Origin: Leptospirales bacterium
Lineage (GTDB): Bacteria; Spirochaetota; Leptospiria; Turneriellales; JAOUFE01
Length of the DNA stretch: 48,598 nucleotides
Direction: 5' to 3'
Assembly (NCBI GenBank): GCA_040326155.1
Contig: JBEQLE010000023.1
Coordinates: forward strand, 1-48,598
Both the position numbers and the translations under genes were made by a program. Below, piece after piece: positions 24,885 to 48,445 of the stretch. Below the pieces are notes generated by a model, which was given only the letters and a program-made list of their open reading frames with translations, had not been told where the DNA came from and did not search any database. The first letter of the stretch is position 1; every line of letters begins with the position of its first letter.

Positions 24885-25280
24885 TACTTTAACACCTTTG
24901 TCTCTTTTGTGATAATGTCTTCACTCTCACCTACTGATAATGTATGATCAACGCAACTCATTATATGAGCTATTAATTTTTTTTGTTTGCCCGGTGGCAA
25001 ATTGCTTACTTCTATTTTGTAAATACCGCTTATAATTTTATCCATTTTTGCTGAGCCCAATAAGGTAACATATTCATCGCTGAACAAAACAGGATAATTT
25101 TTTAATGTTTCTTCAATACGGACGTACAAATAGATTGGCGCTATGGGCTATCTTTAAAAAACCACGGGCGACATCGCCCATGCCTTCAAATATATTCTTA
25201 AGCTCAGTTTTAAACTCATCACGATTGATGTCTCCCTCGATATTTTGGATTTTTCGTATTAAATCTTCTTTGCGTATCAT
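24884..25280 (-). pseudogene. Hypothetical gene coupled to the R-M gene, apparently frameshifted near 25130
   Basis: The ATG at 25280 overlaps the R-M stop (TAATG). A 55-aa ORF (MIRKEDLIRK...) stops at 25113 while an overlapping frame (24884-25129) continues. Confidence 0.5.
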
Positions 25281-28200: not shown

Positions 28201-28396
28201 CTTCATGAATTACATCTTTATAGGTTTCTGACTTTCCACTTTTGTTAAACACATCCCAACCAAGGGCCTCGAAAAAGGGGTCGAGAAATTCACGCCGTAA
28301 CTGGGTCTCGTTGTATTTTCCCGACTTATAGGCGTCGGCGTGCTCTGAAAATTTACTAATAAGTTGTTGTATTTGATCGGGCAAAGGCATGGTCAT
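25280..28396 (-). CDS. Type IIG restriction-modification fusion (Eco57I/TaqI-C like; REase + N6-adenine MTase + TRD)
   Basis: APDYSF...FVEAKK (PD-(D/E)xK), GVYYTP, VLDPACGSG (motif I), VIGNPPY (motif IV) and a TaqI_C-like tail (LLCILNSK...RLKKQYMEQLPI...IDLLVYKLYDLT). Confidence 0.93.
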   Translation of the reverse strand: MTMPLPDQIQQLISKFSEHADAYKSGKYNETQLRREFLDPFFEALGWDVFNKSGKSETYKDVIHEDSIKVKNKSGVSTRAPDYSFRIGGNRKFFVEAKKPSIVIKDNIDPAYQLRRYGWSANLPLSVLTDFEEFAIYDTTVKPKPTDAASVARVFYCTYTEYEKHWEWIQSIFSPDGIQKDYFEKFAGGKKGKKGTTTVDREFLKEIENWRLDLAKNIALRNEIDTRSLNYSVGVTIDRILFLRICEDRGIEPYEQLSHIADKKDIYGELKQLYHKADQKYNSGLFHFEKEKGRSTHPDELTPNLSIDDKILKGILKKLYYPDSPYEFSVIGADILGNVYEQFLGKVIRLAGKSAKVEEKPEVKKAGGVYYTPRYIVEYIVENTLGEKLKKMSTKDVAGESAKYATPLRVLDPACGSGSFLIFAYQYLLDWHRDWYSANNPAKYKKAVFKSGSSNSADGVEIIEWQLTTSEKKKILLNNIFGVDIDNQAVEVTKLNLLLKVLENESAETLESQLSMFHERALPDLENNIKCGNSLIGPDFYSVNSAGKGEQQDLFTSMSEDEKEKVNVFDWESEWSGIMTGDDVGFDVVIGNPPYVRQEVLGPDFKTYAQNIFETYAGTADLYVYFIEKSLSLLKAKGVYSIIVANKWLRANYGDALRKFLKKKRILELIDFGELPVFEGAKTDTCILKIANDQPKDFYVVKQNKLLLGKEGNPPLDKVVKKLKYHVGINTLEDEGWSLSNESEAKLLSKLKQIGEPLGKFGAGKIHYGIKTALDECFVINNSIKEQLIRNDKNSAELIKPFVFGRDIDRYKQPTVDKWLILLPAGFTDVKRGKVKPEIWLQAKYPEIYNWLKQYEEKCKKRWDKGDYWWELRSCAYYGEFENNKLVWPEIAMNPRATFDSGRLYYPTTVYIFSIPDKYLLCILNSKVAWFCLKNICAVLGDSDSGGRLRLKKQYMEQLPIRTIDFDNSDDKAKHDQMITLVDRMLDLNKRLPEANTPHDKTQLERQIAATDQEIDLLVYKLYDLTDEEIKIVEGDNL

Positions 28397-28812: not shown

Positions 28813-29502
28813 TTACTTTTTTTGTTTATCCTCAGTATTGTTGTTCACCTGATTTTTTGTAACTTCCTCGAATGCAAATTGCGTTAGCTTAAATATATCT
28901 TTGGCAAGATTATACACTTCGGTGGTTCCGATTTTTGGTTCACCGTTTATCATAGAAAAATTATTTTCTGCATTAATGATTGCATTTTTGATTAAACTCG
29001 GGTGTTTTCTACTATCAAATCCGCCTTCATCCTTAAATACTACAGTATTAACATATTCTTTCCAGGGCTTTGAAATATGTACTTTATCAAATATTGGTAT
29101 TTCATCTTTTTTATGATAGTATAACCATACTTCAAAACACGGATTACTTTGAGCAATTTTCCAATTCTGATGCGTTGCACAATTTTCTCTTAATTCCTCT
29201 ACCTTTTCTCCCCAGGTGTCAGTATCAATAACGAACCAAACATCATCTTCCGTGGTTGGCTTATAAATTGGTGTTTCTGTCTCACTTCCGAATATATCAT
29301 TTTTAGCCTGATCAAATAATCCTGATGGTGAATTATTACTATGCTGACCAGCAGCAACTACTTCAAGTTTTATTTTATGACTAATCCCTCTAAAATATTT
29401 AAAATAAGCTGGCTCCCTTCTACCTCCCTCACAGTAAATAATAATAAGCTTTGCAGTTAGACTTGGCTCCCTCCGTTGAAATTGTCTATTCTTAATTATC
29501 AT
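28813..29502 (-). CDS. rloB: RloB-family (TOPRIM-like) protein
   Basis: IIIYCEG..REPAYF, VWFVIDTD, IAQSNPCFEVWLYYH and TEVYNL motifs; overlaps the upstream ATPase by 11 nt. Confidence 0.88.
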   Translation of the reverse strand: MIIKNRQFQRREPSLTAKLIIIYCEGGRREPAYFKYFRGISHKIKLEVVAAGQHSNNSPSGLFDQAKNDIFGSETETPIYKPTTEDDVWFVIDTDTWGEKVEELRENCATHQNWKIAQSNPCFEVWLYYHKKDEIPIFDKVHISKPWKEYVNTVVFKDEGGFDSRKHPSLIKNAIINAENNFSMINGEPKIGTTEVYNLAKDIFKLTQFAFEEVTKNQVNNNTEDKQKK

Positions 29503-30853
29503 ATTTATGCCAATTTAAATCCTCTAAGTTTGCCAAAAACGGGATTGACCCGTATCGCCCAGCTAAATAACCTCTTCTTATATCTATCGTGGAATGCTCT
29601 TTGTAGTCAGATAATGAATACAAATCGGTCCTTCCTTTATTATCTTTCTCAACAAACCAGATTTCATCTTGCCTAAATAAATCCTGATCCAATAAATTTG
29701 ATTCATGGGTACTAAAAATCAATTGCCCATTAGTATTGTTATCCTTCGAGAATTTATTAACTAATTCTTTAATTAATAAGGGGTGAATGCTTCTTTCTAT
29801 TTCATCTATTATGAAGACTTTATTACCACTAACAACATTTTTAAAAGCTGGAATAAAGTCTAGCAAACGAATAGTCCCATCCGATTCTTCGCCGAGATTA
29901 AAATAGGCTTTGAGATCTTCGCCTCCAGTATGCTCTAATTGAAGTTGCTTTATGAATATTTCTTCATTTTCCCGGACAAGGACTACTTCGTCTCCTGCAT
30001 CACTACGTAAAACGGCCATTCTATCTTTGTCTTTTTCTAATTCTTCAATTAGATTATTTAATTTCTCAGAACCTTCGTCTCCAAAGAACTCTTTAATTTC
30101 ACGTCTCTCGGACTTTATATTACTAATACCCAGATTAAAAGTACACATAATATCTTGAGCGTATTCACGAAACTCTTGATTTATATCTATTTCATGGGCT
30201 ATTGCTGCCGGTCGGTCATCAGGTTTCATGATTTGTAAAGTATTTGCGAACCAATCTAGCGCATGATTAACTTCCTTAAGATCTGGATTATCCAATGTGG
30301 TTAACAGTTTAATAATTGGCTTGTTGTGTTTACTTAAATTTTTCTCTATCACACTTTTTAAGACTAAGTTCTCTTTATCACTCTCAAATTTATCAGAAAA
30401 TTTAATCTGACTTTTCCCACTCTTTAAAATTTTTCTTTCAAACAAAAGTTTATCTTTACCTTTACCCAACTTAGAAATATATAATTCTTCATTAACTACG
30501 ACTTGTTTATCGCCAATTTCTATGGCATAATAGTAAGCTTGCTCTTGTTGGAAAAATTCTACTCCTAAAATAATAGTATTATTGTCAGCATTTGCAAACT
30601 TAAATTTTTGTTTATCAATATTTTTAGGTAGTTGTTCACGGGTAACTATATCCTTTAACATGAGCATAGCATTAATCAAATTGGATTTTCCAGCACCGTT
30701 GGCCCCATAAATCGAAGCTAATTTCAATACTTCAAACCCTTTTTTCACATATTTATGATCACTTAATCTAGTATACCTCGGACTCGGTATCATATTAAAT
30801 TCAACTTCTTTCCCAAAGGATAAAATATTATTGACTGTAAACCTTATTAGCAT
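29492..30853 (-). CDS. RloA-like AAA_21 / abortive-infection ATPase
   Basis: MLIRFTVNNILSF, IYGANGAGKSN (Walker A), EESDGT, FIIDEIERSIHP (Walker B), QLIFSTH, RQDEIWFVEK and YLAGRYGSIP. Confidence 0.92.
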   Translation of the reverse strand: MLIRFTVNNILSFGKEVEFNMIPSPRYTRLSDHKYVKKGFEVLKLASIYGANGAGKSNLINAMLMLKDIVTREQLPKNIDKQKFKFANADNNTIILGVEFFQQEQAYYYAIEIGDKQVVVNEELYISKLGKGKDKLLFERKILKSGKSQIKFSDKFESDKENLVLKSVIEKNLSKHNKPIIKLLTTLDNPDLKEVNHALDWFANTLQIMKPDDRPAAIAHEIDINQEFREYAQDIMCTFNLGISNIKSERREIKEFFGDEGSEKLNNLIEELEKDKDRMAVLRSDAGDEVVLVRENEEIFIKQLQLEHTGGEDLKAYFNLGEESDGTIRLLDFIPAFKNVVSGNKVFIIDEIERSIHPLLIKELVNKFSKDNNTNGQLIFSTHESNLLDQDLFRQDEIWFVEKDNKGRTDLYSLSDYKEHSTIDIRRGYLAGRYGSIPFLANLEDLNWHKYDN

Positions 30854-34026: not shown

Positions 34027-34028
34027 AT

Positions 34029-34446
34029 TCCGCTGAAGGCGGAGGGCTCCGGCCCGGTTGCGGTGTAGCTTTCCTTAAAAAAACTTCACCCGCAAGAAAA
34101 CGCCATCTTACAAACCCCGCCGTCGGCGATTCTATTTTAAAGTCTGAGCGCCACTCGGCAAACAGTTGTCCTCCCTCCGGTCGGCCTCGGCGATTCTGAG
34201 TTGCTCAAAGTGCAACACGAATTTCTAACCGCTCCTTCGCCCTGGGCGAGATTGAGGTATGCAGGCGGACCGCGTTGGGGAAATCCACCACTTTATGGTG
34301 GGGAAAAAACCAACCCGGCCCTGCCCTACTCTCTTCAGATCGGCAAATACCAGACCCCCATAATATCGTGGGGTTAAGCGTAGGCTCGCCCGCAGGGCAG
34401 CCGTAGCGGAAGGGGAGACTGTAAAAAGTCTGCGACGGAGGCTACT
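34029..34446. other. GC-rich non-coding hairpin cluster (REP/MITE-like mosaic or structured RNA)
   Basis: Many inverted repeats: TCCGC/GCGGA, CGCCG/CGGCG, GTTGC/GCAAC, TCGCCC/GGGCGA, CCACCA/TGGTGG nested in GTTGG/CCAAC and GCAGG/CCTGC, and ACCCC/GGGGT. TCGGCGATTCT occurs twice. Confidence 0.6.
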
Positions 34447-34500
34447 CAAAAATGAAATATTTAATATTGTGTAACCATCACATCTTTAAGCCGCGCGCAA

Positions 34501-34583
34501 TTTAATATTTTTTATATTTTTTTATTATTTTTTTTGTATTTTATATATAAATACTTTACATACAACTTTGGTTCTGTTATTGT
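34501..34583 (+). promoter_or_regulatory. Putative sigma70 promoter for the downstream operon
   Basis: AT-rich UP-like tract, TTTACA (34555-34560), 17-nt spacer and extended -10 TGnTATTGT (34578-34583). SD GAGGAGG lies before ATG 34742. Confidence 0.5.
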
Positions 34584-34741
34584 CCCCACACTGAAGGATC
34601 GTTTCTTCGGTTAAAAAACATAGATAAGCGCGTATAAAATAAATAAATACAATCGTATTCCTATAACGCAAGATCAAACAGGGTTATGCGCTACGAAATA
34701 CATTCATGCGCACTGAATTTATTTGAGTCTGAGGAGGTTGT

Positions 34742-35908
34742 ATGGATTGGCGACACGAACCGATATGGGATCCCTATATAGGCAGTAGAGTAGTAGTTTT
34801 TTTCAACACTGTAAATTCTGGCGAGAAAATTGTTGAGCGCCTCGGAACCGTTACCGGCGGCCCTAACAAAATAATAGAACTTAGCCCGGAAGATGGCGCG
34901 TCAATTCTTGAGTACCGCAACTCCTTGCCCGATCAAGTTTTTACTGCGGCGAGTCAACTCGGCGATATAAAAAATATCGGCCCCGATCAGTTGTATCTGA
35001 TATTTACCGCCTTTCGTGAGCTTGAACTTGAGAATTCTCTTGAAGCCGAAATACTCGGTTTTTTAAATGCAGTCAATGACACGAACGAAATAGTCACTCG
35101 CATCTGGCTCGATCCAAAGTCCGCTAACGTTAAAGAGGAAGGCCATCGCCGCCTCTACCTGGATTATTTCTTTAAAACCACAGACTCTACCACGGGTAAA
35201 ACCGTAGACGCGGCTCCCGCAACCACCGCAATCAAAGCAGAACTTGCAAAAAACATTTTAACGGAACGCAATAAACTTACCGGTAAGCAATTTACGGTAT
35301 TTGAAGAGCTCCAGAAAGTAAGCAAACTGGGGGCTGTTGATTTTCATAACATCCTTTACAGTTTTGCGAAAATTCCGCTCAACTCTCCGGGCGACCTGGC
35401 CGCTCTCATCAAAACCGATACGTGGATAGCGTCGCTGCCCTCAGGTTTTACCGAACTCACCGATTTTACGCTCGCCGATATCGAAACGACCTGGGACGCC
35501 GCAACTTCGAGTTTTTCAAACGTGACGTTTGCTTTGCAAGGTCCGACGCCCTGGGAACTGACTTTGGGCGAGGCAACGAACCCAACGCCGATCTTGGACG
35601 ATGTTACGTTTTACTATACAATTCAAAATCCGGGTACGCCGGACGAGACGATTACCGCCGAGATGAAAACAGTCCACCTTGCAGGCGATGTCGAGGTTCC
35701 TTTGAGTGTTCCATTAGCTGGCGATACGGTGCCCGCTGAGACGGGGGACATCAGCTGGAATCTGGAGCAGCCGACTACGGTCGCTTCGTTGCAGGATGTG
35801 TCGGGGCTGTTTGATGTCGAGACTGCGTCGCTTTTGCCGGAGGGTTTGCTGAGTTTTAGCGGGGGTGTAGAGTTGCAAGCGTTGGATGTCAGCGTGGTGG
35901 ATGCGTGA
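34742..35908 (+). CDS. Hypothetical protein: two HhH (ComEA-like) repeats + acidic beta-module related to the downstream giant protein
   Basis: ASILEYRNSLPDQVFTAASQLGDIKNIGPD and AKNILTERNKLTGKQFTVFEELQKVSKLGAVD; the C-terminal part resembles modules of 39399-47390. Confidence 0.7.
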   Translation: MDWRHEPIWDPYIGSRVVVFFNTVNSGEKIVERLGTVTGGPNKIIELSPEDGASILEYRNSLPDQVFTAASQLGDIKNIGPDQLYLIFTAFRELELENSLEAEILGFLNAVNDTNEIVTRIWLDPKSANVKEEGHRRLYLDYFFKTTDSTTGKTVDAAPATTAIKAELAKNILTERNKLTGKQFTVFEELQKVSKLGAVDFHNILYSFAKIPLNSPGDLAALIKTDTWIASLPSGFTELTDFTLADIETTWDAATSSFSNVTFALQGPTPWELTLGEATNPTPILDDVTFYYTIQNPGTPDETITAEMKTVHLAGDVEVPLSVPLAGDTVPAETGDISWNLEQPTTVASLQDVSGLFDVETASLLPEGLLSFSGGVELQALDVSVVDA

Positions 35909-35938: not shown

Positions 35939-38900
35939 ATGGCTGAGAAGAATAATATGGTGAAGGTAAAATTTCTGGTAAAGACGGCCGAATACAACCA
36001 AGGGTTGTTAAATGAAAAGCATGTTCCTATTCACTCCTATTTTTTGTATCTGTTTTGGAAACAAGATGATGAATACAAACTTTTTTTACAAACCGATGAT
36101 AAAAACAAAAAATTAAAAGTTGCGGGAAAACATATTCCGGTTGTAGCCAAACCCGACGTAGCCAATAGTGAACTTTGCGACTATCCGTTTGTAAGGAAAG
36201 AGACTTATTACGGCTGCTTTAGCGGGAAAGAGTTAGACGTCAACGCGCTGAAAACAATCGCAATGACTTCGCCAGAAAGGTTGATTCATATTTACCCAAC
36301 GGGATCAACGTACAAAATTGATCATTCTTTTTTTTATTGGCTGATGAAAGCGGCTGAGTTAGAATCGGATACAAAAACCAGCCATGAAAATATAAACCTC
36401 CTTCTTGAAACTCTGGAAAAGAAAACTGACGTGAATGAAGATGAAAAATGGATTATTGACAACCAATGGTGCACCCTGCCGAACAATCAGTGTTTAGATA
36501 TCAAAAGCGCTCTAACAACGATAAAAAATAAATTATCCAACCCATCGCAAACAATACAGGCAATCTTTGATTCCTCTTTAAATGAAACAATGGCCTGTTA
36601 TAAAACAATCGAGATTGCCCCCACTAGAAAAGCCTGTTCTAAAGATCAAAAATGGTCGGGCGCGATTAGAGAAGGTTTTTCGCATCACATATTAACGAGT
36701 AACCTACGGGCTCATTTGATTGCCCCGACGTTGTCCGATAAAAATACAGTAACAGGCGATTTACTTAAAAGTTTCAGTGACAACAACATATCCAACGATC
36801 TTACAAATCTCTTTTATAAAGACGAAAATAATTCTTCTATTGGTTACGGCAATGTAAATATACTCAACACTCTGACAAAAAGCGCTATACAACAATATGG
36901 AACAAATGATGCGCAATCCGACTCTTTGGATCTTAAACCGCTTGAAAGAAATATTTTTTCTTACGTTGATAGCGTAGCCGAAACAAACAGTTTTCAATAT
37001 GACTGGGACAGTTTTGATAATGCCAAGAGGAAAATACTATTTGAATTCGGTATTGATTTAAATTCTTATAGCAACTTTTTTATATCGTTGTTTCGAGACG
37101 CTCTTGAATGTTTTGAGCAAGCCACACTGCATCATGAAAAAACAGCAAATCGCAAATTCAATATATCCCCTTACAATGTCAAAATAAGCTATTCGGAAAC
37201 CGAAAAATCAGAGACTGGCGCTTATGAACTCATTAGCGCAAGCTCTGTATTGAATATTAAATCGATCATTGAGCATACTACTGAGAATACTACTCTTAAA
37301 AATTCAATTCTTTTTCTAGACGGATATACAAACCAGCATATTTTTGAAAAAAATGAATTTTCAATTCCAAAACAAAAAGAGGAATCTATTTCAGCATCGG
37401 AATTCACTGCCCAAACGCAAGTTGACGATACTGTAAAATTTATCGAACTCATTCCCTTTGATCAAAATCTAGTAACCTACAATTTTTTAAAAAATGAAAC
37501 GGGCAGAAAACGGCAAGATTCAACCATAGTCCCGATATCGGCATGGGAAAAACTCCGGGCAAAACTGGAAACTGAAAATTTTCCGATGTTAACAATGGAC
37601 GCTTTCAAACATATGCGCCTGACAGGCGCAAACCTGGCCATTCCAAAGTTTGAGAGATTTCAATCGTCTACCGGGCAATACGTTGCGCCCGATCTTCAAA
37701 GCGCGACAGACTGGGTCGGCAACCAGGGGGAAACGGGATTTTTTACAAAAAATACTATTAATAGTTTTTATGAAGATTTAAATAATCGGGAATGGAGAAA
37801 TCGAGCAGGAACTTGGCAAGGTTCCGGTAATCAAAATAATTTCCCAGTCTACGATGCGCTTGGTAAATTTGTCAGCAACAAACTGATTTCAATAAAAGCC
37901 TCTGGTGGCGGGGCGAGCGACAACCAGAACAAGCAGAGGGATGTGAGAAGGAGGTATTGGGAAACAGGTTTTAAAAAGACTTTTGGGGGACACAGTAATC
38001 CCAGGCATAAAAATTATAGAAATTTCAATAATGTCGCAATACAGCCAGACAATCTTAATACGAACAGAGCAGATGCAATTTATAGATCTTATTTAGCGAT
38101 TAACAGTGATGATGTAGCTTCCTTTCGAGAAAACCTTAAGAATTCCGCAGACGCAAATATCTTTAACAGACAGATATCCGGGGTAAACGACCTGGGTAAT
38201 AGGGCGGTAAAACACAAGCTCATGTACGAATTTTTCAATATTATTCTCGAAAAAGAAAATATTAAATTGAATGGCGTTCGTATCCCAACTCTAGAGGCTT
38301 TATTCGCACAACCTTCAGGTACGAACATCAATTCCGTTACCGAAAAATTAAAAACGATTTTAGCGAAACGAATCATCAGCAATGGCAGAACAAACGCCGA
38401 AGTTCGTAACAGTATTCATGCGAGAATTGGTACGGGGAGATTAGGACGTTTACAACCATACCAATACAACTACGTGACATCCGAGTATATTTATGTAAAA
38501 AGCCAGGCATCGACTATCAAAGCTTCTTTAAAATCTGCAGGAAGAAACGCAGCCTACGGATCCATTTTTACTACCATATTGAGTGGTCATAAACTATTGA
38601 CTAAAGATGGAGAAAACACCGGAGACGATTATTTAAAATTTGGTTCTGACATTGCGCTTGGCATCGTTGGCGACGCCGTATCATCGGCAGGCGAAACAGG
38701 AGTTCTTTCGCGCGGGCTTGTTCAAGGAACCGGGATTATAAAGACGTTTGGACGAACCGTCGGAAAATCTTTCACAAGTGGTTTAGCAGCGCCTATTGTG
38801 GAAGTCGGAACTATGTTGTTCGAAGATCATTATTTAAATACGAAAGATTATAGTTATACGGATTACTCCGCAAAAGGTACCAGAGCGGCCGTTGGAGGAA

Positions 38901-39364
38901 TTTTTGCAGCCGGCGCCGGCGCGGTCGGCACCTTAATTTTTCCCGGTATTGGGACTATAGCAGGTATGGCAATTGGTTATGGCGCCTATATGGTTTATGA
39001 ACTTCTGGCAGGGCAAGCCATTGAAGACGGCGTTCGCAGTGTATTAAGCGAAGAAACCGAACAACCATCGGTATCAGCAAAGAAAATGCCGCTCCAAAAT
39101 ATAGTTGGAAATGTAGACTATACTACTTTCAAGTATTTTCGAATTATCCATCAGAAATTTACCATAGAAGATAACATATTGGTACAACCGACAGGGACAT
39201 ACATTAGTATGATGTACCCGGAGAAAGACGATGAAGATGTTTATTTACAAGTAAAAGTCGTCAACACCCGGCAAAACGAGCTATTCGATAGCCTCGGCGA
39301 TACATTTCTTATTCCAACTACAAATCTTATGAAATCCAAATCACAGGTCGGGCCAATTGTTTAA
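35939..39364 (+). CDS. Putative polymorphic-toxin-like protein: unknown N-domain, REase-fold nuclease motif, Gly/Ala-rich membrane helices
   Basis: GNQGE...DLN...NFPVYD...ISIK, then AAVGGIFAAGAGAVGTLIFPGIGTIAGMAIGYGAY. The N-terminus is paralogous to 47465-48445. Confidence 0.6.
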   Translation: MAEKNNMVKVKFLVKTAEYNQGLLNEKHVPIHSYFLYLFWKQDDEYKLFLQTDDKNKKLKVAGKHIPVVAKPDVANSELCDYPFVRKETYYGCFSGKELDVNALKTIAMTSPERLIHIYPTGSTYKIDHSFFYWLMKAAELESDTKTSHENINLLLETLEKKTDVNEDEKWIIDNQWCTLPNNQCLDIKSALTTIKNKLSNPSQTIQAIFDSSLNETMACYKTIEIAPTRKACSKDQKWSGAIREGFSHHILTSNLRAHLIAPTLSDKNTVTGDLLKSFSDNNISNDLTNLFYKDENNSSIGYGNVNILNTLTKSAIQQYGTNDAQSDSLDLKPLERNIFSYVDSVAETNSFQYDWDSFDNAKRKILFEFGIDLNSYSNFFISLFRDALECFEQATLHHEKTANRKFNISPYNVKISYSETEKSETGAYELISASSVLNIKSIIEHTTENTTLKNSILFLDGYTNQHIFEKNEFSIPKQKEESISASEFTAQTQVDDTVKFIELIPFDQNLVTYNFLKNETGRKRQDSTIVPISAWEKLRAKLETENFPMLTMDAFKHMRLTGANLAIPKFERFQSSTGQYVAPDLQSATDWVGNQGETGFFTKNTINSFYEDLNNREWRNRAGTWQGSGNQNNFPVYDALGKFVSNKLISIKASGGGASDNQNKQRDVRRRYWETGFKKTFGGHSNPRHKNYRNFNNVAIQPDNLNTNRADAIYRSYLAINSDDVASFRENLKNSADANIFNRQISGVNDLGNRAVKHKLMYEFFNIILEKENIKLNGVRIPTLEALFAQPSGTNINSVTEKLKTILAKRIISNGRTNAEVRNSIHARIGTGRLGRLQPYQYNYVTSEYIYVKSQASTIKASLKSAGRNAAYGSIFTTILSGHKLLTKDGENTGDDYLKFGSDIALGIVGDAVSSAGETGVLSRGLVQGTGIIKTFGRTVGKSFTSGLAAPIVEVGTMLFEDHYLNTKDYSYTDYSAKGTRAAVGGIFAAGAGAVGTLIFPGIGTIAGMAIGYGAYMVYELLAGQAIEDGVRSVLSEETEQPSVSAKKMPLQNIVGNVDYTTFKYFRIIHQKFTIEDNILVQPTGTYISMMYPEKDDEDVYLQVKVVNTRQNELFDSLGDTFLIPTTNLMKSKSQVGPIV

Positions 39365-39398: not shown

Positions 39399-42300
39399 AT
39401 GAAAACATTAACCACAAACAACCTCACCGCTCAACTCCAACAACCCATCACCGTCCTGATGGGTTTTCCCGAAGTAGTTGCGCTCAACATCGCGATTTCT
39501 CAAACCCCCGACGGACAATCGCTTCTTACCCTCTCCGGTGACATCGACCTCTTTGGAAACATCTGCCCATTCACTCTTACCTACGATAAAACCATCTGGC
39601 AATTTCAATTAACAATCGCACAAGGCATAACACTTCCTTTCAACACGGCGGATCTCAAAGAAATATTTGGCGGCGCAGAGCTGCTGGGAAATTTTCCCGC
39701 AACATCAGGCTTTGATACCATCGACGTTTCAGAACTAACGCTGGAGTTTAATCCCGATTCGATTTTTCCGTTGCCGATGACCGAACTAAACCATGTCGAA
39801 ATCGTGGCGGGGCTGCAAGACTGGAAAATCGTCGAAGCGATCAATCTATTTTTAACCAACATTCGACTCGACTTTGACCTGAGTTTTCAGAAAGTTGTAG
39901 ACGCGCTAGCCGATCCGTTGGCGCCGCAAAGCCCTTTAGAACTGACCAGTTTTTCAGGGGCAATCGAAGCGGGGGCGGCTATCATCAACAACGGCGTCAC
40001 CGAGCTTGAGCTGCCAACTTTTCGAGCCTATTTGCCCATCACAGACGAAGGGCTATTGATGGAGATGGTAAACGAGTTTTATGACATCCCCACGTTGCAA
40101 AACCTCAGCCCGCTTCTTGGTGGAACCGATTTAAGTCTTTATATTCCCCCGCAACTTCCTGCAATTCCTTCGTTGCAACTATCTGAATTTACTTTTAACC
40201 TCGATCGAGATTACACCGGTTTGAACTTTATGGACTTCACCCTTGGTTTCCCGCAGGGTTATGCCTGGGTGTTGATCGCAGGCAAACTGCAGCTGTCCGA
40301 TTTTAAACTCAACTTCGATTTTCCGGCACCGCGCCTTCGCTTAGGCGTTGCCATGGGTTTCGGAGATCTCGCCGCAGAGTTTGTCACACTACCCATGGTC
40401 GCCGATGTTGAATTTACCGAATCAAATCAATTTGAGAAATTGACCGTTGAACTCGGCTCCCTTGAAGGCACCCACGACCTGAATTATTCCGTAAGCTCTG
40501 CTCATATATCAGCCCTGGGCTTTGACATCAATTCCATGATTCCGGGCATCGACCAAAGTGAATTTCTCGTCGATCATTTTCTACTTGAGTTTGACGCCAA
40601 CATGAATCTTGTTCGCACGATGCTTTCGATCTCATACCCCGGAAGCCTCGATCTCATCGCGAATAAATTTTCGATCGTGAACCCCGACATCGAAGTTGAA
40701 GTTCACTTTAGCGCCCCCATAAAATACAACGGCATTTTAAAAGCCGACCTAACGATCGGAGCTGACCAGGCGACCTACATACCGATCGAGCTGAGCTTTG
40801 ACGACACCGACGAGTGGGTACTCTCACTCAATAACGATGACACTGGTGAAAATGTAGCCCTGCCGAGTATTACCTCGCTTGCATCTTTAATTGGCGACTC
40901 TACCTACTTCGACAGTCTTCCATCGAATTTCAACTTCGAAGGAATCGAACTTTCCGATTTCGAATTGCGCTTTCCTCATCCGGTAAATCAAAAGATCAAC
41001 CATCTGTTTTTTACTCTGGAGATGCCTGCGAGAATGACGATCATTCCTTCTTTAAGTGTGTCGAAACTCAAGTTTCACTTTGACGCCGATTTTACCATCG
41101 GGCCAACACTCGCAGATATGCAGGCGACGCTCCAACTGAACGGAGTCGTCACCCTGGCTCTTGGTCCAGAAACGGGCGATCTCGAAATTCCGCTGTTGAT
41201 CACTAAATCTCTCACCGAGTGGACCGTCGAATTTGACTTGATGCCCGGCGACACGGTTATCCTTCCTTTTTCTAAACTTCCTTTGTTGCTTGATAACGCT
41301 CCTATCAGCGACGTTTTACGCGAAGACCTGATTTTGACAGACGTCGAAGTCGAAAGGTTAGAGTTGAGGTTTCCCGTAACGTTTGATCGACTCGACTTTG
41401 CCTCCTTTAAAGGAAATGTCACCGCCTGGGAAGTTCTGCCTACCCTGCAATTGTCGCTTGTGAAGTTTGAAGTCGACATGAACATCCCGATGCCGCTCTC
41501 CCTGGAAACACTCTGGGGAACTTTCCAGGGGCAGACAAAAGTCGGTACTTTGTTGCTGCCGACACTACGCGGTACCCTACCCTACCAGGATTCAGGACTT
41601 GCCCTCGAAATGGTCGAAGGGGAATACCCTATACCGAGCCTCACACAAATGAAACCCTTGCTCGGAGGCTTTGATCTTTCGACGGTTTTACCCTCACAGT
41701 TCCCCGCCATCAGCTCTCTTTTATTAACACGATTTTTAGTACATTTTGACCCAGAATTCAGCGGTCTACACTACATGGCCTTTCGTTTGGTATTGCCACC
41801 CGCAACAAACCCTGATGGAACCCAAAGCGATAGCGCATGGGATCTCTTTCCACTGGTTCCCAACACTGTAATATTAAAGCAACTCGAATTCGATTTTACC
41901 TTTCCCGAACCCCACTTCAAATTGGCCGGTATAGTCGGGCTGGGCTCATCCGATGAATTCCCGATGACGGCCTCTTTCTCGATCGAAGATGGCAGTTTTT
42001 CAGGACTGATCTTTGAACTCGGTGCTCTAGATCAAAGTGACACTTGGAGTTACAAAATTGGCGGAGCCGATCTATCGCTGATGGGTTTTAACCTCACGAC
42101 GATGCTGCCCGGTTTAGATACATTGGTTCTGGCTCTCACCCGATTTCGGCTAGAGTTCGACAATGCGATGAGTTTGAAACAACTCTACTTTCAAGTTCAT
42201 TCAGAGGGTTCTTGGGATCTGATCGCCAATCGTCTCAGCATCACCAACCTCAGCGTTGATCTCACCATTGGCTTTCCATCACCATACGCTTTTGAAGGTT

Positions 42301-45300
42301 TTGTAGCAGCCGATTTCGATTTGCATTTAGATAGTGTTGAGAAATTCCCCATCTTACTGACGATCCCGAAAACGGGCGACTGGAGTCTGGCTTTGGATCT
42401 GCCAACACCAGACGACTCGGTCTCGTTTGCCGGTGTTACTGACCTTTCGGCCTTAGTTGGTTTAAACTTAGATACCTTTATGCCGCCGGGCTTGTCGATC
42501 AGTGCGTTTAACCTGACCGAATTGGCGATGCAGTTTCCTCATCCTTCAGAACAGAAAATCTCGACCGTATTTGTCGGAGCCAATATGCCCGACACCTGGC
42601 AGATTGTACCGAACCTGACGCTTGGCGATCTGAATCTTTATACTGAAATTGATTTCACCCAAACACCAGCGGAAGTCACATTTCAAGTGACGAGCGTTAT
42701 CGGCGTAGGGGCGGTAAAGATACCGCTTCTGATTTCCCGAGATCCGAGCCAATGGAAGTTCGGCTTAAACCCGGAATTCGAAACCGAGTTTTTTATCCCC
42801 TTTACAAAAATGACCGGTTGGTTGGGCACGCTGCTGCCATCACTGCCTTCCCCCATTTCAGGGGCCAACATTGCCCTGCGAGAACTGATGTTTACTTTTT
42901 CGGGTGACATGGCAAATTGGAAAAATTTTGAATGCAGGGGAAGTCTCGATTCTAGTTGGACGCCAGTAGCCTCGCTCACCAGTTTTAAAATCGATGAACT
43001 TGACTTTTACGTTCAAATCGACGCCACCCCGGCTGAACCGGTTTTAACCCTGGAAGTAACCGGGGTCATTATTCTGGGGGAAATTCGTGTACCGATCAAG
43101 ATCGTCAAAACGACCACCGAGTGGATCTTTTCGTTAAATCTTGCCCCCGGTTCTGATATAGAAAGTGTAGCTTTGCCGTTTAGTCAACTCGAAGAGTGGT
43201 TTGGTCAAAACCTGATTGCTCTTCCGACGGTTCTTACCATCGGCGATGTAGGAATTTCCGCACTGGAGATTATCTTTTCATCGAATATGAGAATATGGAA
43301 AAGTTTCTCCTGTGATGTTTCTCTCAACAAAACCTGGATGCTCACCGATACCTTCGGTTTAACGATCAAACGCTTTACGCTCGATATGGAGTTTCCGTTG
43401 AACGCAACCAAGCGCAAAATTGTGGCGGCGATGCATTGTAATATCCTGGCAGATTCTCAGACTTTCGGGGTGATCGTTGCCATCGATACGCTCAACGAAA
43501 AATGGAATCTCACTCTGGTTCCTGAACAAAATATTGTGATCAGCGCACTCGGTCCGTTAAGCCATATTTTTAATATCGCGACCCTGACCACCCAGATGAT
43601 GCCGATGGAAGTTGCGCTTGGGGATATCCACCTCGAAAGTCTGTCGGTTACCCTCGACTTCGATTTTAATATTCTCGGCATGCTTTTGACTGGCACGCTC
43701 GATAAAGGGCAGATCAAAGTCACCCTGCCGATGCTCGAAGTCTCCGACGAGGAAGACCAGAAGAGTCTGACGGCTTCGGCGACGGTGAACGATCTAAAAC
43801 TTTCCCAGGCCGAGAATCTGGATATTATTTTGACATCCAATGTCACGTTAGCTGTAACCGGTCTGCCGACTATTTTACAAAACGCTCTTCCAACCGATGT
43901 AGATGCGATAGTAACGGCGTCAAAGACCGAAGCCAGCGTCACCGTAAACAACACACAATCTTTTACACTGCCCCAAATCAAATTTGCCAACCAACGGGTG
44001 AACATTAAAGGAGAGTTTAAAGGAATTAAATTTACCTATGCCGTAGGCGGACCCGAAATCTCTACCGATGTGACCTTCTTTCTGGTACACGAGGGCACAC
44101 ATCAGCTCAATGAGATGATGCCGGTCGACCTGCTCAACGATGAAGTACATTTTCGCCTGAGTATCAATCAGGTAGACAAAGCTAAAATTGCCCTTACCGA
44201 ATGGCCCTTCAAGTTGCCGACAGTCAAAAAACTCAAAAGAGAAGGTTGGATACTTTTCGACTTTGGAGATGCCGGGGCGGTTACACTGAATCTGCCAACG
44301 TTCAGCCATAATGGCACGAGTTTTAAAGCTAATGGCCAGGTGAAATTCCCGGAAGACGGCGACAGTATCATCACTTTAAAAGATCCGGTGGGCGACGCAG
44401 CGCCTGTCGAAGAGACCTACATCGCAAAAGCGCTTGGTATTCCCTTAGGATTTATTAAAAAGTTTCTTGCGCAATCAGGATTGTCGTTTATCGGAGATAT
44501 GCTGCCCGATTCGATTCCGCTTGATCCGGACTTGGCAACGGTTCTCCCCGGCCTTACCGGCAGCACAACCGGATTGCCAACTGCCTTCGATAGTTACAAA
44601 GAGATCACAAACCCTCGGGCTTTTGACTTTTATATTGAGACCGTTTCGGGCGGTTCTGTGAGATTCGACTTTGCCACGACCGCAGATGAAAACGGCGTCA
44701 GAGAGCCGATGAAAGTACTCTTAAAAGACCCACTCGGCGTCACCATTATGCTAGGCGTGCAGGTCTCCAGAATTGCCATCGGTGAAACAGGCGGGGTCAT
44801 GACTTTCGATTTTGACGCACGAGTTGACATCTTTTTTGCGCCGCTTATTTTGGCGATGCAAAATATGCCGAACTTGAGCATACCGTTGCTGCCAGATTTT
44901 AAAGATGTACATTTAACTTTCATTGCTGACAAAGTGTTTGGAGTCATCGCAGGGTGGCCCATACCGATTTTCTTTAACGAGTTGAGCGTGAGCTATCTCG
45001 GGGTCGAAGGGCTGGAGCTTAAAACCGTCTGGAAAAATCCGATGCCCGGTCATGGTATCAATGAGATCATTAAAGTGGCCGCGCTTTTACCGCAGTTTGC
45101 CAAATTTGCTTTCAACCCGACTTATCTATTGCCAACCGACCCGACCGATCCCGAGTACCCCGACCTGGGCGACGCGCAGCTTGATTTTAGAATTGAAGAT
45201 TTGTACTTAAAAACTCCGGAGTATCTCGGCGGCGTTGTTCTGGGTCATCAATATACAGACGATAACCCGTTAATTGAGTTGCATAATACCGAAGTATTCA

Positions 45301-47390
45301 ATCTGTTAAACGCTTCGAAAATGCCCACGCCTGCAAATCTCTTGAAAGTGATTCCATCCAGCAAAAGATCAGGCTCTGGCGACATTTCGTTTGGTCCCAT
45401 TGCTTCAAATTTCGCATGGGCCATTAGTAATCCGGGGGAATTTTTAGCAGGCTATAGTGGTCCACTGCCCAGTGAGAGTCTGCTCGTTCTTTTCGGCGAC
45501 TCTGATGAAACACAACCAACGGACGATGAAAAAAGCATAATCGTCATTGAAGGCCACTGGGGCATCGGAAATATCATCAGCTCCGATGTTATGTTTGCCA
45601 TGCAGGTGGGTGGATTTGATGGGATGGCCCTCGGTATCGCCGCTAGAGGAAGCATTGCCAATGATTTTCTCGGTTTCGACATTGCGGGAAGCATGATGTT
45701 TGATATTCCGGGTAAATCTTTTGCGCTCGATGCGTTTTTAGCTCTGAAACTGCTCGGCACGGATGTTGCCACTCTTACCGTTGGCTTGAGCGAAGAGGAG
45801 TTTTCACTTGCAGGAACCGTAGAACTCTTTAACAACCCGATTATCCAAGCCGAGGGAACCCTCACCGGTACGATTAAGAGTACCGGCGCTTTCTCGATTA
45901 CGGGTAATATTGACGCATCCGGTGGACTTCTCTCACTCGGGGGGCCTGAGGTAGATATTTCAGCGACTCTTTCGAACAGCGGCGCTACGTTGACCGGGGA
46001 CTTTACGATTATCGATATCGCGCTCTTGCGCTTGAAAGGAACGATCGACATTTCTCTGAGTAGTCAAGGGCAACTTGCTCTCTCCGGAACGGTAGAAACT
46101 GGCGGTGGAATTTTTGCCATGAGCGAGATTAGCATCGAAGGAAATTCCGATCTTGCCGCTACGGTCAGTACGCCCCCGAGCTTGATTCCTTTTCAAAATA
46201 TTAAAATCAAAGCTGAATTTAGCGTTCTGGATACGCCCTTTATCAAGTTAGGCGGCAGTAAACTTACCGCCACGCTGACCGATACCTCCCTCGATTTCGA
46301 AGCGCTGATTTCGGGGCCGCAGGGCTTTATCGGTTTTTCCGATGAAGGCGAGAACCAGATGAAAATCACGGGTACCGATATCGGTACGAGCGATAGCAAA
46401 CTCAGCATCGCCGGTGATTTTGGCATCAATACGCCCCTTTTGAAAATCGGGTGCCACATATCTGGTACGATCAACTCTACTTTTAATCTTGATGTTACGG
46501 GAACGATCACCTCCTCAATAGGGGGATTTGACCTGACAGGGGATAACACCTCGGTCTCTCTGACTGAAGATTCGTTATCTATTACGGCAGAGTGGCTTGG
46601 GTCTGAGTTTACGTTAGATGCGGAAATTGATGGGACAAATATCAACCTCAAAGGGACGGCGATGTTCACCATACCGTTTCCGGCCCCCTGGAAAATCCCC
46701 AACCCGCTACCTGGCGGCGATGACCTCGATTTAGAAAAGCTCTTCGGGCTCGATATTTCTATAAGCGCCGGAGTAGCGGTAGAGTTCAGCAATACCTCCT
46801 ATTCGGCGGGGGCAGCGCTCACCTGTACTTTCTGTGGCGTCGACTTTACAATTGACGCTAACCTCGATATCGATCTGAGTGAAATGAACTCCTTAGACGA
46901 TCTGAAAGATGTCATCATAGAATTTGCAAAGAGCTCTCTGAGCCTCGCCAGTTTTTTCACCGACTCGATCTGGTGGGCTCAAGATTTAATCAAAGCGGTG
47001 AAATACTCTTTCGAGAATTCACTACAGGAGAACACACCGACCAACTTCACCCTGATCAAAACCTCCCTCTTTGAAATTGGGTGTGACATTAGCAGCAGCG
47101 ACGGCTCCTCCCTCACGGTAGATGTGAACGTCTCGGCGGGCGGTTTCTTGCAACTTCCCGATGCGCCCAAAGTAACCTTCGGCTGGACTGAAGTCACCAT
47201 AGAGTTAGAGTTCGATTCCAACAAAACATTACCCCCGCCGGGAATGCCTTTTTCGCTGGAGGGCGACACCACCATAACCATCGGCACATCGGGCTTTGAA
47301 CTCAGCGGTGAAATGGAAGTCAAACTCCTGGGCGAAACCATCTTCAAGGGCGCCGTCGGAAGCAGCAATTTACTGGGGAATCTGGTTTAG
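39399..47390 (+). CDS. Giant (2663 aa) acidic beta-repeat protein of unknown function (repeating beta-groove-like)
   Basis: Uninterrupted 8-kb ORF with alternating hydrophobic beta-strand patterning, ~125-130-aa modules and a ~520-aa duplication. No evident signal peptide. Confidence 0.85.
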   Translation: MKTLTTNNLTAQLQQPITVLMGFPEVVALNIAISQTPDGQSLLTLSGDIDLFGNICPFTLTYDKTIWQFQLTIAQGITLPFNTADLKEIFGGAELLGNFPATSGFDTIDVSELTLEFNPDSIFPLPMTELNHVEIVAGLQDWKIVEAINLFLTNIRLDFDLSFQKVVDALADPLAPQSPLELTSFSGAIEAGAAIINNGVTELELPTFRAYLPITDEGLLMEMVNEFYDIPTLQNLSPLLGGTDLSLYIPPQLPAIPSLQLSEFTFNLDRDYTGLNFMDFTLGFPQGYAWVLIAGKLQLSDFKLNFDFPAPRLRLGVAMGFGDLAAEFVTLPMVADVEFTESNQFEKLTVELGSLEGTHDLNYSVSSAHISALGFDINSMIPGIDQSEFLVDHFLLEFDANMNLVRTMLSISYPGSLDLIANKFSIVNPDIEVEVHFSAPIKYNGILKADLTIGADQATYIPIELSFDDTDEWVLSLNNDDTGENVALPSITSLASLIGDSTYFDSLPSNFNFEGIELSDFELRFPHPVNQKINHLFFTLEMPARMTIIPSLSVSKLKFHFDADFTIGPTLADMQATLQLNGVVTLALGPETGDLEIPLLITKSLTEWTVEFDLMPGDTVILPFSKLPLLLDNAPISDVLREDLILTDVEVERLELRFPVTFDRLDFASFKGNVTAWEVLPTLQLSLVKFEVDMNIPMPLSLETLWGTFQGQTKVGTLLLPTLRGTLPYQDSGLALEMVEGEYPIPSLTQMKPLLGGFDLSTVLPSQFPAISSLLLTRFLVHFDPEFSGLHYMAFRLVLPPATNPDGTQSDSAWDLFPLVPNTVILKQLEFDFTFPEPHFKLAGIVGLGSSDEFPMTASFSIEDGSFSGLIFELGALDQSDTWSYKIGGADLSLMGFNLTTMLPGLDTLVLALTRFRLEFDNAMSLKQLYFQVHSEGSWDLIANRLSITNLSVDLTIGFPSPYAFEGFVAADFDLHLDSVEKFPILLTIPKTGDWSLALDLPTPDDSVSFAGVTDLSALVGLNLDTFMPPGLSISAFNLTELAMQFPHPSEQKISTVFVGANMPDTWQIVPNLTLGDLNLYTEIDFTQTPAEVTFQVTSVIGVGAVKIPLLISRDPSQWKFGLNPEFETEFFIPFTKMTGWLGTLLPSLPSPISGANIALRELMFTFSGDMANWKNFECRGSLDSSWTPVASLTSFKIDELDFYVQIDATPAEPVLTLEVTGVIILGEIRVPIKIVKTTTEWIFSLNLAPGSDIESVALPFSQLEEWFGQNLIALPTVLTIGDVGISALEIIFSSNMRIWKSFSCDVSLNKTWMLTDTFGLTIKRFTLDMEFPLNATKRKIVAAMHCNILADSQTFGVIVAIDTLNEKWNLTLVPEQNIVISALGPLSHIFNIATLTTQMMPMEVALGDIHLESLSVTLDFDFNILGMLLTGTLDKGQIKVTLPMLEVSDEEDQKSLTASATVNDLKLSQAENLDIILTSNVTLAVTGLPTILQNALPTDVDAIVTASKTEASVTVNNTQSFTLPQIKFANQRVNIKGEFKGIKFTYAVGGPEISTDVTFFLVHEGTHQLNEMMPVDLLNDEVHFRLSINQVDKAKIALTEWPFKLPTVKKLKREGWILFDFGDAGAVTLNLPTFSHNGTSFKANGQVKFPEDGDSIITLKDPVGDAAPVEETYIAKALGIPLGFIKKFLAQSGLSFIGDMLPDSIPLDPDLATVLPGLTGSTTGLPTAFDSYKEITNPRAFDFYIETVSGGSVRFDFATTADENGVREPMKVLLKDPLGVTIMLGVQVSRIAIGETGGVMTFDFDARVDIFFAPLILAMQNMPNLSIPLLPDFKDVHLTFIADKVFGVIAGWPIPIFFNELSVSYLGVEGLELKTVWKNPMPGHGINEIIKVAALLPQFAKFAFNPTYLLPTDPTDPEYPDLGDAQLDFRIEDLYLKTPEYLGGVVLGHQYTDDNPLIELHNTEVFNLLNASKMPTPANLLKVIPSSKRSGSGDISFGPIASNFAWAISNPGEFLAGYSGPLPSESLLVLFGDSDETQPTDDEKSIIVIEGHWGIGNIISSDVMFAMQVGGFDGMALGIAARGSIANDFLGFDIAGSMMFDIPGKSFALDAFLALKLLGTDVATLTVGLSEEEFSLAGTVELFNNPIIQAEGTLTGTIKSTGAFSITGNIDASGGLLSLGGPEVDISATLSNSGATLTGDFTIIDIALLRLKGTIDISLSSQGQLALSGTVETGGGIFAMSEISIEGNSDLAATVSTPPSLIPFQNIKIKAEFSVLDTPFIKLGGSKLTATLTDTSLDFEALISGPQGFIGFSDEGENQMKITGTDIGTSDSKLSIAGDFGINTPLLKIGCHISGTINSTFNLDVTGTITSSIGGFDLTGDNTSVSLTEDSLSITAEWLGSEFTLDAEIDGTNINLKGTAMFTIPFPAPWKIPNPLPGGDDLDLEKLFGLDISISAGVAVEFSNTSYSAGAALTCTFCGVDFTIDANLDIDLSEMNSLDDLKDVIIEFAKSSLSLASFFTDSIWWAQDLIKAVKYSFENSLQENTPTNFTLIKTSLFEIGCDISSSDGSSLTVDVNVSAGGFLQLPDAPKVTFGWTEVTIELEFDSNKTLPPPGMPFSLEGDTTITIGTSGFELSGEMEVKLLGETIFKGAVGSSNLLGNLV

Positions 47391-47464: not shown

Positions 47465-48445
47465 ATGCCGACATCAACTGATACTACAAACACGTCAGTC
47501 ACGAAAGTGAAGCTGCCGCTTGATCGTGTCTTCTGCCAGTTTGAGTGTTATCAGCAAACTGAGAAGACAGACGCTAATGGAAAGACGTCGCAAGTTTTTG
47601 ATTACAAGCCGGTGGATTCTTATAAGCTCTATCTGTTTTATAAAAAGAACGACCAGTTTTTTCGCATGCCCGGCAACACCCCTCCTGCTGAGCCGATTGT
47701 GACCGCAGATGACCATGCCGAATACATCATTTCGGATAAAGATGTTACCGAAAAAAAGTGCAACTACGCTTTTAAGAAAGGCGCGACTTACTATGGGTAT
47801 TTTGCGGGGAAAGAACTGACGGAGGCTGAGATTACGGGGTTGATGGGTGAGCGGAGTTATGTGTTGTTGAAGATAGTTCCATCTGACAGCGGTGTGTTGA
47901 GATTGGATTTTTCATTGTTTCAATATATAGTTTTATTGCAACAACTTGAAGACGGATTAACCGGTGATGTAGCCTTGACAAAAATAAACACCGTTTACAA
48001 ATCAAATTTCAGTTCTTTGACTTCCGACATAGAAAAACAACTCTACAAAAATGATTTTATGATTGCAACAAATAATGAACCCATTCAAATGAGCCGTTTC
48101 TTTGAAGCTTTATCGGCTCAAAAAAAAGGAGAAGTACCTGTATGGGAGAAGTCTCTGGCAGACGTAGTAACGAATGCTATAACTTTTCATGAAGATCCCA
48201 ATGCGACAGCTACAAACAAGCTTTTGTCCTTTGAGAATGCCTTGCAAAAAATTACGGATCAGCAATACCCCAAGGGTATTTTAGAAAGTCATGTGTTAGG
48301 AGCAACACTGGGAAAAGTAGTACCGCCTCCCGGCACTCCTTATTCTTTTACCTACTCGATAGAAGAGTTTTTTTATCAGAGTAATTTTTCTGAACTTACA
48401 AAGAATTATATAGAAAATTTTTATATCGAGGTTTCTAATGTCTGA
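47465..48445 (+). CDS. Hypothetical protein, stand-alone paralogue of the N-terminal region of 35939-39364
   Basis: SD AGAGGT. PVDSYKLYLFYK...CNYAFKKGATYYGYFAGKEL aligns with PIHSYFLYLFWK...CDYPFVRKETYYGCFSGKEL. Confidence 0.8.
   Translation: MPTSTDTTNTSVTKVKLPLDRVFCQFECYQQTEKTDANGKTSQVFDYKPVDSYKLYLFYKKNDQFFRMPGNTPPAEPIVTADDHAEYIISDKDVTEKKCNYAFKKGATYYGYFAGKELTEAEITGLMGERSYVLLKIVPSDSGVLRLDFSLFQYIVLLQQLEDGLTGDVALTKINTVYKSNFSSLTSDIEKQLYKNDFMIATNNEPIQMSRFFEALSAQKKGEVPVWEKSLADVVTNAITFHEDPNATATNKLLSFENALQKITDQQYPKGILESHVLGATLGKVVPPPGTPYSFTYSIEEFFYQSNFSELTKNYIENFYIEVSNV

Follow-up and report, generated by a model that had tools for sequence, protein, structure and literature searches.

We analysed a 48,598-nt stretch of DNA from a Leptospirales bacterium (hereafter the window), which is one entire contig (C87) of a 4.26-Mb genome in 171 contigs that is 94.7% complete, and found that it closes with a cassette of four same-strand (+) open reading frames (ORFs), P0001, P0002, P0003 and P0004, that lie 30, 34 and 74 nt apart. 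P0001 is probably a head piece that belongs to the N-terminus of the giant protein P0003 but has a gene of its own, and it would attach to the giant by completing a module that is split between the two chains. P0001 consists of two ComEA-type (HhH)2 domains (HhH, helix-hairpin-helix), one full module of the giant's type and, on this reading, a 45-residue half module comprising the linker helices and strand A, and the giant would start mid-module, its first 83 residues lacking the linker and that strand. The last strand of P0001 (aa 374–388) is predicted to pair antiparallel with the first strand of the giant (aa 1–15), with the two chain ends abutting; this pairing would rebuild a full 128-residue module (45 + 83) and restore the continuous HhH–module–core architecture, which a relative, P0009, has in one chain. 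What the analysis shows is the domain content of P0001, the homology of its module to those of the giant, a fused relative with collinear parts and how well its C-terminal tail is conserved. The parts of the two proteins, with the ribosome-binding site of P0001, are as follows.

34731..34737 (+): Shine-Dalgarno-like GAGGAGG, read from the sequence, 4 nt 5' of the P0001 ATG
34742..35908 (+): P0001 gene, an ATG ORF of 388 aa with HhH1, HhH2, module 1 and a putative half-module tail
34769..35041 (+): HhH domain 1, aa 10–100, with a short beta-hairpin insertion in place of hairpin 1; hairpin 2 is 'NIGP'
35042..35371 (+): HhH domain 2, aa 101–210, including an insertion of 36 aa (aa 125–160) modeled at low confidence; hairpin 2 is 'KLGA'
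35372..35770 (+): module 1, aa 211–343, homologous to the modules of the giant, with a helical linker motif and then five beta-strands
35771..35905 (+): putative half-module tail, aa 344–388, linker helices and one strand; predicted docking element
39399..47390 (+): giant P0003, 2663 aa, isoelectric point (pI) 4.2, net charge -198
39399..39647 (+): giant aa 1–83, putative truncated first module without linker and first strand, with a 'P......W' end motif at aa 57–72
39648..43895 (+): giant aa 84–1499, eleven tandem modules of 114–150 aa
43806..46148 (+): giant aa ~1470–2250, conserved core common to giant proteins of several phyla

P0001 shares a repeat module with the giant

The first 1,500 residues of the giant are repetitive. 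Chunk-wise BLASTP within the protein aligned aa 203–399 with aa 718–921 (E = 3.7e-36), a super-repeat at aa 123–700 resembles aa 658–1200, and an iterated hidden Markov model (HMM) resolved 11 modules with a period of 114–150 aa. Each opens with the start motif ..L..L.G.....LP........L..L.L.F, and beta-strands come next. Module 1 of P0001 has the same organization, its five strands lying at aa 243–252, 257–266, 284–295, 303–314 and 317–326 in an AlphaFold2 (AF2) model.

An HMM built from the giant's 11 modules only scored P0001 at 13.7–14.2 bits (E ~3e-6 for one target), a score reached by none of 2000 shuffles of P0001 (the top shuffles gave 9.8 and 10.3). The same HMM scored the P0001 homologues P0007, P0005 and P0006 at 45.4 (E = 6e-16), 21.7 and 20.2 bits, and gave E ~0.1 for the neighbouring proteins P0002 and P0004. 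Profile–profile alignment with hhalign of aa 205–388 of the P0001 family against the module alignment returned Prob 94.2 and E = 1.2e-7, placing P0001 217–323 on columns 1–126, and a control with the HhH half returned E = 0.79. The initial annotation had described P0001 as carrying a copy of the giant's beta module, which this alignment bears out; the ORF and the two peptides quoted for the comparison fall exactly where it placed them, I211 of P0001 at nt 35372 and V486 of the giant at nt 40854.

We also considered leucine-rich repeat (LRR) homology for the linker motif (P0001 aa 203–231 and the giant's module starts), on the strength of weak matches to leucine-rich repeats of SHOC2 in a PDB profile search (E ~0.005). 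We judged this likeness to be at the level of the motif and not homology, because it spans only ~30 residues and the model contains no LRR fold.

A fused relative holds the same parts in one chain

P0009, a protein of 3257 aa, has two HhH units at aa 9–181, directly followed by 13 module matches at aa 190–1887 and then by the giant's core. P0001 20–269 is collinear with P0009 12–242 (E = 6.6e-21), and giant 427–2221 is collinear with P0009 880–2744 (E = 4e-107). The P0009-type giant has the parts of P0001 plus the giant (two HhH units, tandem modules, conserved core), in an identical order. Unlike in the one-chain P0009, the chain here would be cut inside the second module, and a 1141-aa gene lies between the pieces. 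Since P0009 joins everything in a single polypeptide, P0001 reads as a segment from the N-terminus of the giant that is encoded on its own. The C-terminus of P0009 (aa ~3230–3257) is a cysteine-rich tail with repeated C.SC/CV.C, which the window's giant does not have.

An exhaustive HMMER scan of 1.84 billion representatives returned 12 relatives of P0001 at E <= 0.001, 11 of which contain HHH_3 at E <= 0.01; the P0009-type giants in this library amount to one 3257-aa protein. Among 5.8 billion clustered proteins, P0001 has 2 homologues. Its identity to P0005 is 64%, to P0006 59% and to P0007 28–32%, and it is single copy within its own genome. A homologue of the giant, P0018, shares the giant's N-terminus. 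The related-locus search based on P0001 yielded one metagenome locus (L001), which has a TauE-like gene, then an HhH protein, then a P0002-like gene, as at the window, and the same search found nothing in genome contigs. Viral contigs yielded no relative of either P0001 or the giant, and among 401 sampled genomes of its phylum the giant was found in 1, which is the genome studied here.

Predicted completion of a split module

The tail of P0001 aligns to module positions 2–34, about the first third of a module, and across four sequences it is the best-conserved part of the P0001 family, with 40% invariant positions compared with 30% in module 1, 18% in HhH2 and 11% in HhH1. P0005, P0006 and P0007 share the end of P0001, a ...GGVEL.AL.V.VV tail; with this shared end and the gene order repeated on L001, the split is no one-off lesion. 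At the start of the giant, the end motif at aa 57–72 reads CPFTLTY-DKTIW-QFQ. The 45 residues of the tail and the 83 of the giant's start sum to 128, the module range being 114–150. The two proteins also have nearly equal pI values (P0001 4.28, giant 4.20).

We modeled the complex of giant aa 1–365 with P0001 aa 205–388 in three runs, along with three controls; an unrelated partner was used in two of the controls, and in the third the giant was replaced. The interface score (ipSAE) was 0.68, 0.66 and 0.68 in the three runs and 0.00 in all three controls; contacts agreed by at least 95% between runs, and the partner had a predicted local distance difference test (pLDDT) score of at least 74. 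In calibration, 116 of 157 solved complexes attained the ipSAE mark, compared with 2 of 215 mismatched pairs, a calibration that is only rough here, given shallow custom alignments of 2 and 4 rows. The predicted interface brings P0001 356–369 and 374–388 against giant 1–15, 41–45 and 62–64, with P0001 374–388 antiparallel to giant 1–15. The lowest-error contact pairs are 377:12, 379:10, 381:9 and 382:8, with sums of ~389; in the model this is the register of an antiparallel hairpin whose turn would lie at the two chain termini, as expected of a module cut in its first hairpin.

Docking is therefore supported in silico by three independent lines: the fused P0009, the conservation of the tail and the complex prediction, from which we infer that P0001 physically binds the giant. 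The initial annotation had P0001 docking on the edge of the giant's sheet, and the complex with the giant's N-terminus (ipSAE 0.68 compared with 0.00), P0009 and the conserved tail are in line with that proposal. It had called the protein an adaptor, a term that undersells a protein that reads as part of the giant itself.

Weighing the split-head reading

Several observations weigh against P0001 being a detached head of the giant. BLASTP of P0001 against the giant gave several collinear matches at E 0.06–0.12 (best E = 0.063), which are not significant. Against 18,948 six-frame genome ORFs, the module HMM found P0001 at E = 0.066, with one 61-aa ORF outscoring it, and genome-wide with default filters the 131-position module HMM did not report P0001; as P0001 alone is marginal genome-wide, the module case rests on the family and not on the single sequence. 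The second, C-terminal copy of the module motif that the initial annotation had proposed does align to module columns 1–33, but its sequence support is weak (E 0.003–0.21): hhalign gives E = 0.014, or 0.003 with the tail alone, and the module HMM gives E = 0.21 for P0001, 0.13 for P0005 and 0.004 for P0006. The N-terminus of the giant has only a local HMM match, of aa 57–70 to module positions 103–117 (E = 0.022), and hhalign of giant aa 1–86 with the module profile is not significant (E = 0.077, non-collinear columns). P0008 and P0011 end after module 1, without the tail; they could have a different split point or be truncated records. The gene for P0002, 3.4 kb long, separates P0001 from the giant gene. 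The complex score expresses how confident the model is in itself and is no measurement, and the predictor may simply be extending the repeat pattern across chains.

With these points in view, we considered P0001 as a free-standing nucleic-acid binder, whether a regulator or a binder of the nucleoid or of extracellular DNA (eDNA), with its module a relic of shared ancestry and with no binding to the giant. P0001 comes with a Shine-Dalgarno sequence and a start codon of its own and has an HhH fold, the tail is absent from P0008 and P0011, and the tail and the giant's N-terminus find weak sequence support as halves of one module. A free-standing protein is nonetheless unlikely, in view of a tail that no other part of the family equals in conservation, the fused relative P0009, a complex prediction of 0.68 compared with 0.00 for the best control, and HhH domains that are acidic or neutral. 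Composition raises a separate question. G+C content at third codon positions (GC3) is 0.52 in P0001 and 0.53 in the giant, compared with 0.37 in P0002 and 0.41 in P0004, most non-cassette genes of the window lying at 0.25–0.41, so that one operon-like cassette is a mosaic in composition. This mosaic, together with the fused form found elsewhere, would suit a P0009-like continuous gene broken by insertion of the lower-GC P0002, with P0001 left as a non-functional remnant. That the split is mere damage is very improbable, since the same split and gene order are seen in a relative only 64% identical, the tail end is retained in P0006 and in P0007 (28–32% identical), and every ORF is intact with its own start. 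Insertion may well be the origin of the split, the pieces having been maintained since. The GC3 that P0001 and the giant have in common also speaks for the split-head reading, which we prefer; P0002 may have entered a once-continuous gene, a history that would fit the GC3 contrast.

HhH domains of P0001

The initial annotation had recognized two HhH repeats in P0001, and these are real. P0001 scores 27.1 bits against Pfam HHH_3 (PF12836; cut-off 27, E = 4.7e-6), with the best stretch at aa 164–203, repeat 1 aligns with repeat 2 by BLASTP at E = 1e-4, and in the AF2 model of P0001 (6-row alignment, mean pLDDT 72.7) both repeats are five-helix (HhH)2 domains. Canonical (HhH)2 domains contain two G-hydrophobic-G hairpins each, and neither HhH unit of P0001 has the pair; the domains thus belong to a known fold class and lack one of its defining motifs. 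The second unit's insertion (aa 125–160, nt 35114–35221) holds GHRRLYLDYFF, which is strictly conserved in three close homologues and may be a short linear binding motif. A Foldseek search with the whole P0001 model against the PDB found nothing at E <= 0.001, and in a wide structure search the best structural matches of the HhH units were KIF22 and TEFM rather than ComEA.

The annotation had further proposed that these repeats form a non-specific DNA-binding head. The fold agrees with this proposal, and nothing beyond the fold does: hairpin 1 is replaced, HhH1 is acidic, and the giant has a net charge of -198. The observations that count against DNA binding are several. The HHH_3 match is borderline, with no individual stretch above the cut-off, and P0001 is not among the matches of a genome-wide six-frame HHH_3 search at E <= 0.001. 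Where hairpin 1 would be expected, unit 1 has 'GTVTGGPNKIIELS' and unit 2 has the aa 125–160 insertion. Net charge is -6 for HhH1, 0 for HhH2 and -25 for the module part, and the pI of the whole protein, as given above, is acidic at 4.28. Of the features needed for DNA binding only half are present, and DNA binding by the head is unproven and open to some doubt, standing on the fold alone. The sole match of the genome-wide HHH_3 search was a 354-aa GspK-like ORF (L018 757–1821, contig C88) with an N-terminal hydrophobic segment; GspK-type HhH folds are not known to bind DNA.

P0001 could dock on the giant with HhH units that have lost nucleic-acid binding, serving as a module for protein or another ligand or as a soluble cap that shields a free beta-edge during assembly. 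This is quite possible, although it falls short of an even chance. The insertions that replace hairpin 1 in both units are what such a loss would look like, as are the net charges of -6 and 0, an HhH part whose charge varies among relatives from -8 in P0009 to +14 in P0011, the KIF22 and TEFM matches in place of ComEA, the conserved GHRRLYLDYFF within a disordered insertion and a GspK-like ORF as the genome's only other HHH_3 match. The HhH part is basic in P0011 and P0007, which speaks for retained binding, as do the glycine kept in hairpin 2 of both P0001 units, the canonical second hairpin (GVG, GMG) of P0009, P0008 and P0011 and several conserved Lys/Arg residues in the HhH2 core. Taken on its own, nucleic-acid binding by the head is possible but doubtful, and the head would otherwise bind a protein or ligand.

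Conserved core of the giant

The core is found at 12 loci in genome contigs (HMM E-values 1e-42 to 1e-105), in metagenome-assembled genomes titled Leptolyngbya, Gemmatimonadota, Polyangium, Archangium, Paraglaciecola, Roseivirga, Kutchimonas and a deltaproteobacterium. AF2 folds it as an all-beta meander (pLDDT 67.5), for which the structural matches are generic only. These 12 distant giant loci contain no P0002-like and no HhH-bearing ORF, and they have no recurrent neighbor genes save between two Roseivirga records. Two of the distant core relatives carry recognizable domains: the Paraglaciecola ORF (L010:1–6816) has DUF6603 (7e-81), and the Archangium ORF (L008:7664–15199) has three Laminin_G_3 domains (5e-70).

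DUF6603 (PF20248), present in the Paraglaciecola core relative, was also a feature-atlas hint for the C-terminal half of the giant (score 0.82). Its profile matched none of the giant pieces at E <= 10 and nothing in the genome. DUF6603 is a family without a described function, and the term was not found in the literature searched; a literature search on the combination of a ComEA-like protein with a giant likewise found nothing relevant.

P0002 and P0004

The two remaining genes of the cassette are related to each other.

35939..39364 (+): P0002 gene, 1141 aa, with a conserved N-domain (aa 1–140), a body that diverges fast and a hydrophobic Gly-zipper region (aa 983–1013)
47465..48445 (+): P0004 gene, 326 aa, short and paralogous to the P0002 N-terminal part (BLASTP E = 6e-12)

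P0002 has a single full-length homologue, P0020, with 32% identity overall and ~80% in aa 1–140. This N-domain is common to P0004 (BLASTP E = 6e-12), and a search of the genome itself aligned P0004 47–282 with P0002 at E = 7.6e-12. In the feature atlas, which is derived from a language model, 29 of the 30 neighbors of P0002 are VasX_N clusters (score 0.91), with 154 of 256 features shared, under the 170 typical of true family members. The VasX_N HMM gave no match to P0002 at E <= 10 and none in its own genome, the control genomes being likewise without a match, and TssC, sheath protein of a type VI secretion system (T6SS), was not found in the 94.7%-complete genome. The VasX likeness of P0002 is a lead only, not a finding.

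HHH_3 in P0001 is the sole Pfam family across P0001–P0004; at E <= 10, Pfam found nothing for P0002, P0004 or the C-terminal half of the giant. NCBIfam gave noise only at E <= 1 for the cassette proteins, PHROGs contained no family for P0001–P0004, and PADLOC-DB 2.0 contained no component families for them, its defence matches being confined to neighbors at 25–31 kb (Type IIG restriction-modification (RM) and AbiL). No described family matches the module, the giant or P0002/P0004. By reading, none of the cassette proteins has an evident signal peptide, and a strongly hydrophobic stretch occurs in P0002 only.

Genomic setting

G+C content is ~35% across most of the window and climbs to ~0.47 from about 34 kb. 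The contig stops ~150 nt 3' of P0004, and the cassette may extend past the contig end. The 715-nt intergenic region at 34027–34741, between the TauE-like gene and P0001, is G+C-rich first (34030–34440) and then very A+T-rich, and a gap of similar length lies 5' of the P0001 homologue on the metagenome locus L001. An Rfam search of the whole window, including this gap, gave 0 matches, and scans for promoters and terminators were at chance (27 found compared with 22.6 expected, and 15 compared with 17.3).

The rest of the window holds signaling genes, that is, histidine kinases, a CHASE2 cyclase and TPR-CHAT. On the minus strand at 15443–21853, a FecR-like protein, a CHASE2 adenylate/guanylate cyclase and a TPR-CHAT protein stand in succession. 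A defence islet lies ~4 kb upstream of the cassette, all on the minus strand (25280–28396, 28813–29502 and 29492–30853), in which a Type IIG RM enzyme (PADLOC 4e-217) adjoins an AbiLi/AbiLii pair (8.8e-80 and 3.7e-23).

What the cassette might be

As a working guess, the cassette encodes a large acidic beta-sheet scaffold that would act with the glycine-zipper protein P0002. A more far-reaching proposal is an undescribed modular machine, in which an acidic giant scaffold would be assembled by split-module strand complementation, with an HhH head that tethers or senses nucleic acid (nucleoid, eDNA or invading DNA) and a VasX-like, membrane-active P0002, the whole forming a DNA-linked toxin, defence or delivery system that adjoins the Type IIG RM enzyme and AbiL. 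We regard this full picture as highly speculative and unlikely to hold in all its parts.

Of the four proteins in the cassette, three stand outside any described family, as does the repeat module, and the close family is extremely rare. The split and fused pair offers a way to see a giant repeat protein built from two genes through completion of a half module in trans, and the HhH head is a handle on what such giants attach to. If the head does bind DNA, an unknown class of giant beta proteins would be linked to nucleic acids.

Comparison with known systems

The closest known relatives of the head are the (HhH)2 domains of the ComEA/HHH_3 group, which includes ComEA (8dss/2duy), Tex, Pol III alpha, the C-terminal domain of KIF22 and the N-terminal domain of TEFM. 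In contrast to ComEA-type domains, those of P0001 have hairpin 1 replaced by a beta-hairpin (unit 1) or a 36-aa disordered loop (unit 2), are acidic or neutral rather than basic, have no signal peptide or membrane anchor, and are fused to the beta module of an uncharacterised giant. For P0002, the VasX-family pore-forming effectors of the T6SS (PF20249) are of similar size, and P0002 has its hydrophobic Gly-zipper stretch at the C-terminal end; glycine-zipper toxins occur in the literature. RBG/AsmA-like beta-groove lipid-transfer proteins, a further comparison, are built from a repeat of five strands and a crossing helix or loop, which forms a hydrophobic groove.

In chaperone-usher pili, an incomplete beta fold is completed by the edge strand of another chain, a process known as donor-strand complementation. 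The arrangement predicted here resembles it in principle only, in that an incomplete beta fold would be completed in trans. Unlike the pili, P0001 and the giant show no homology to that system, no immunoglobulin fold, no usher and no chaperone, and complementation here appears to derive from the splitting of a gene.

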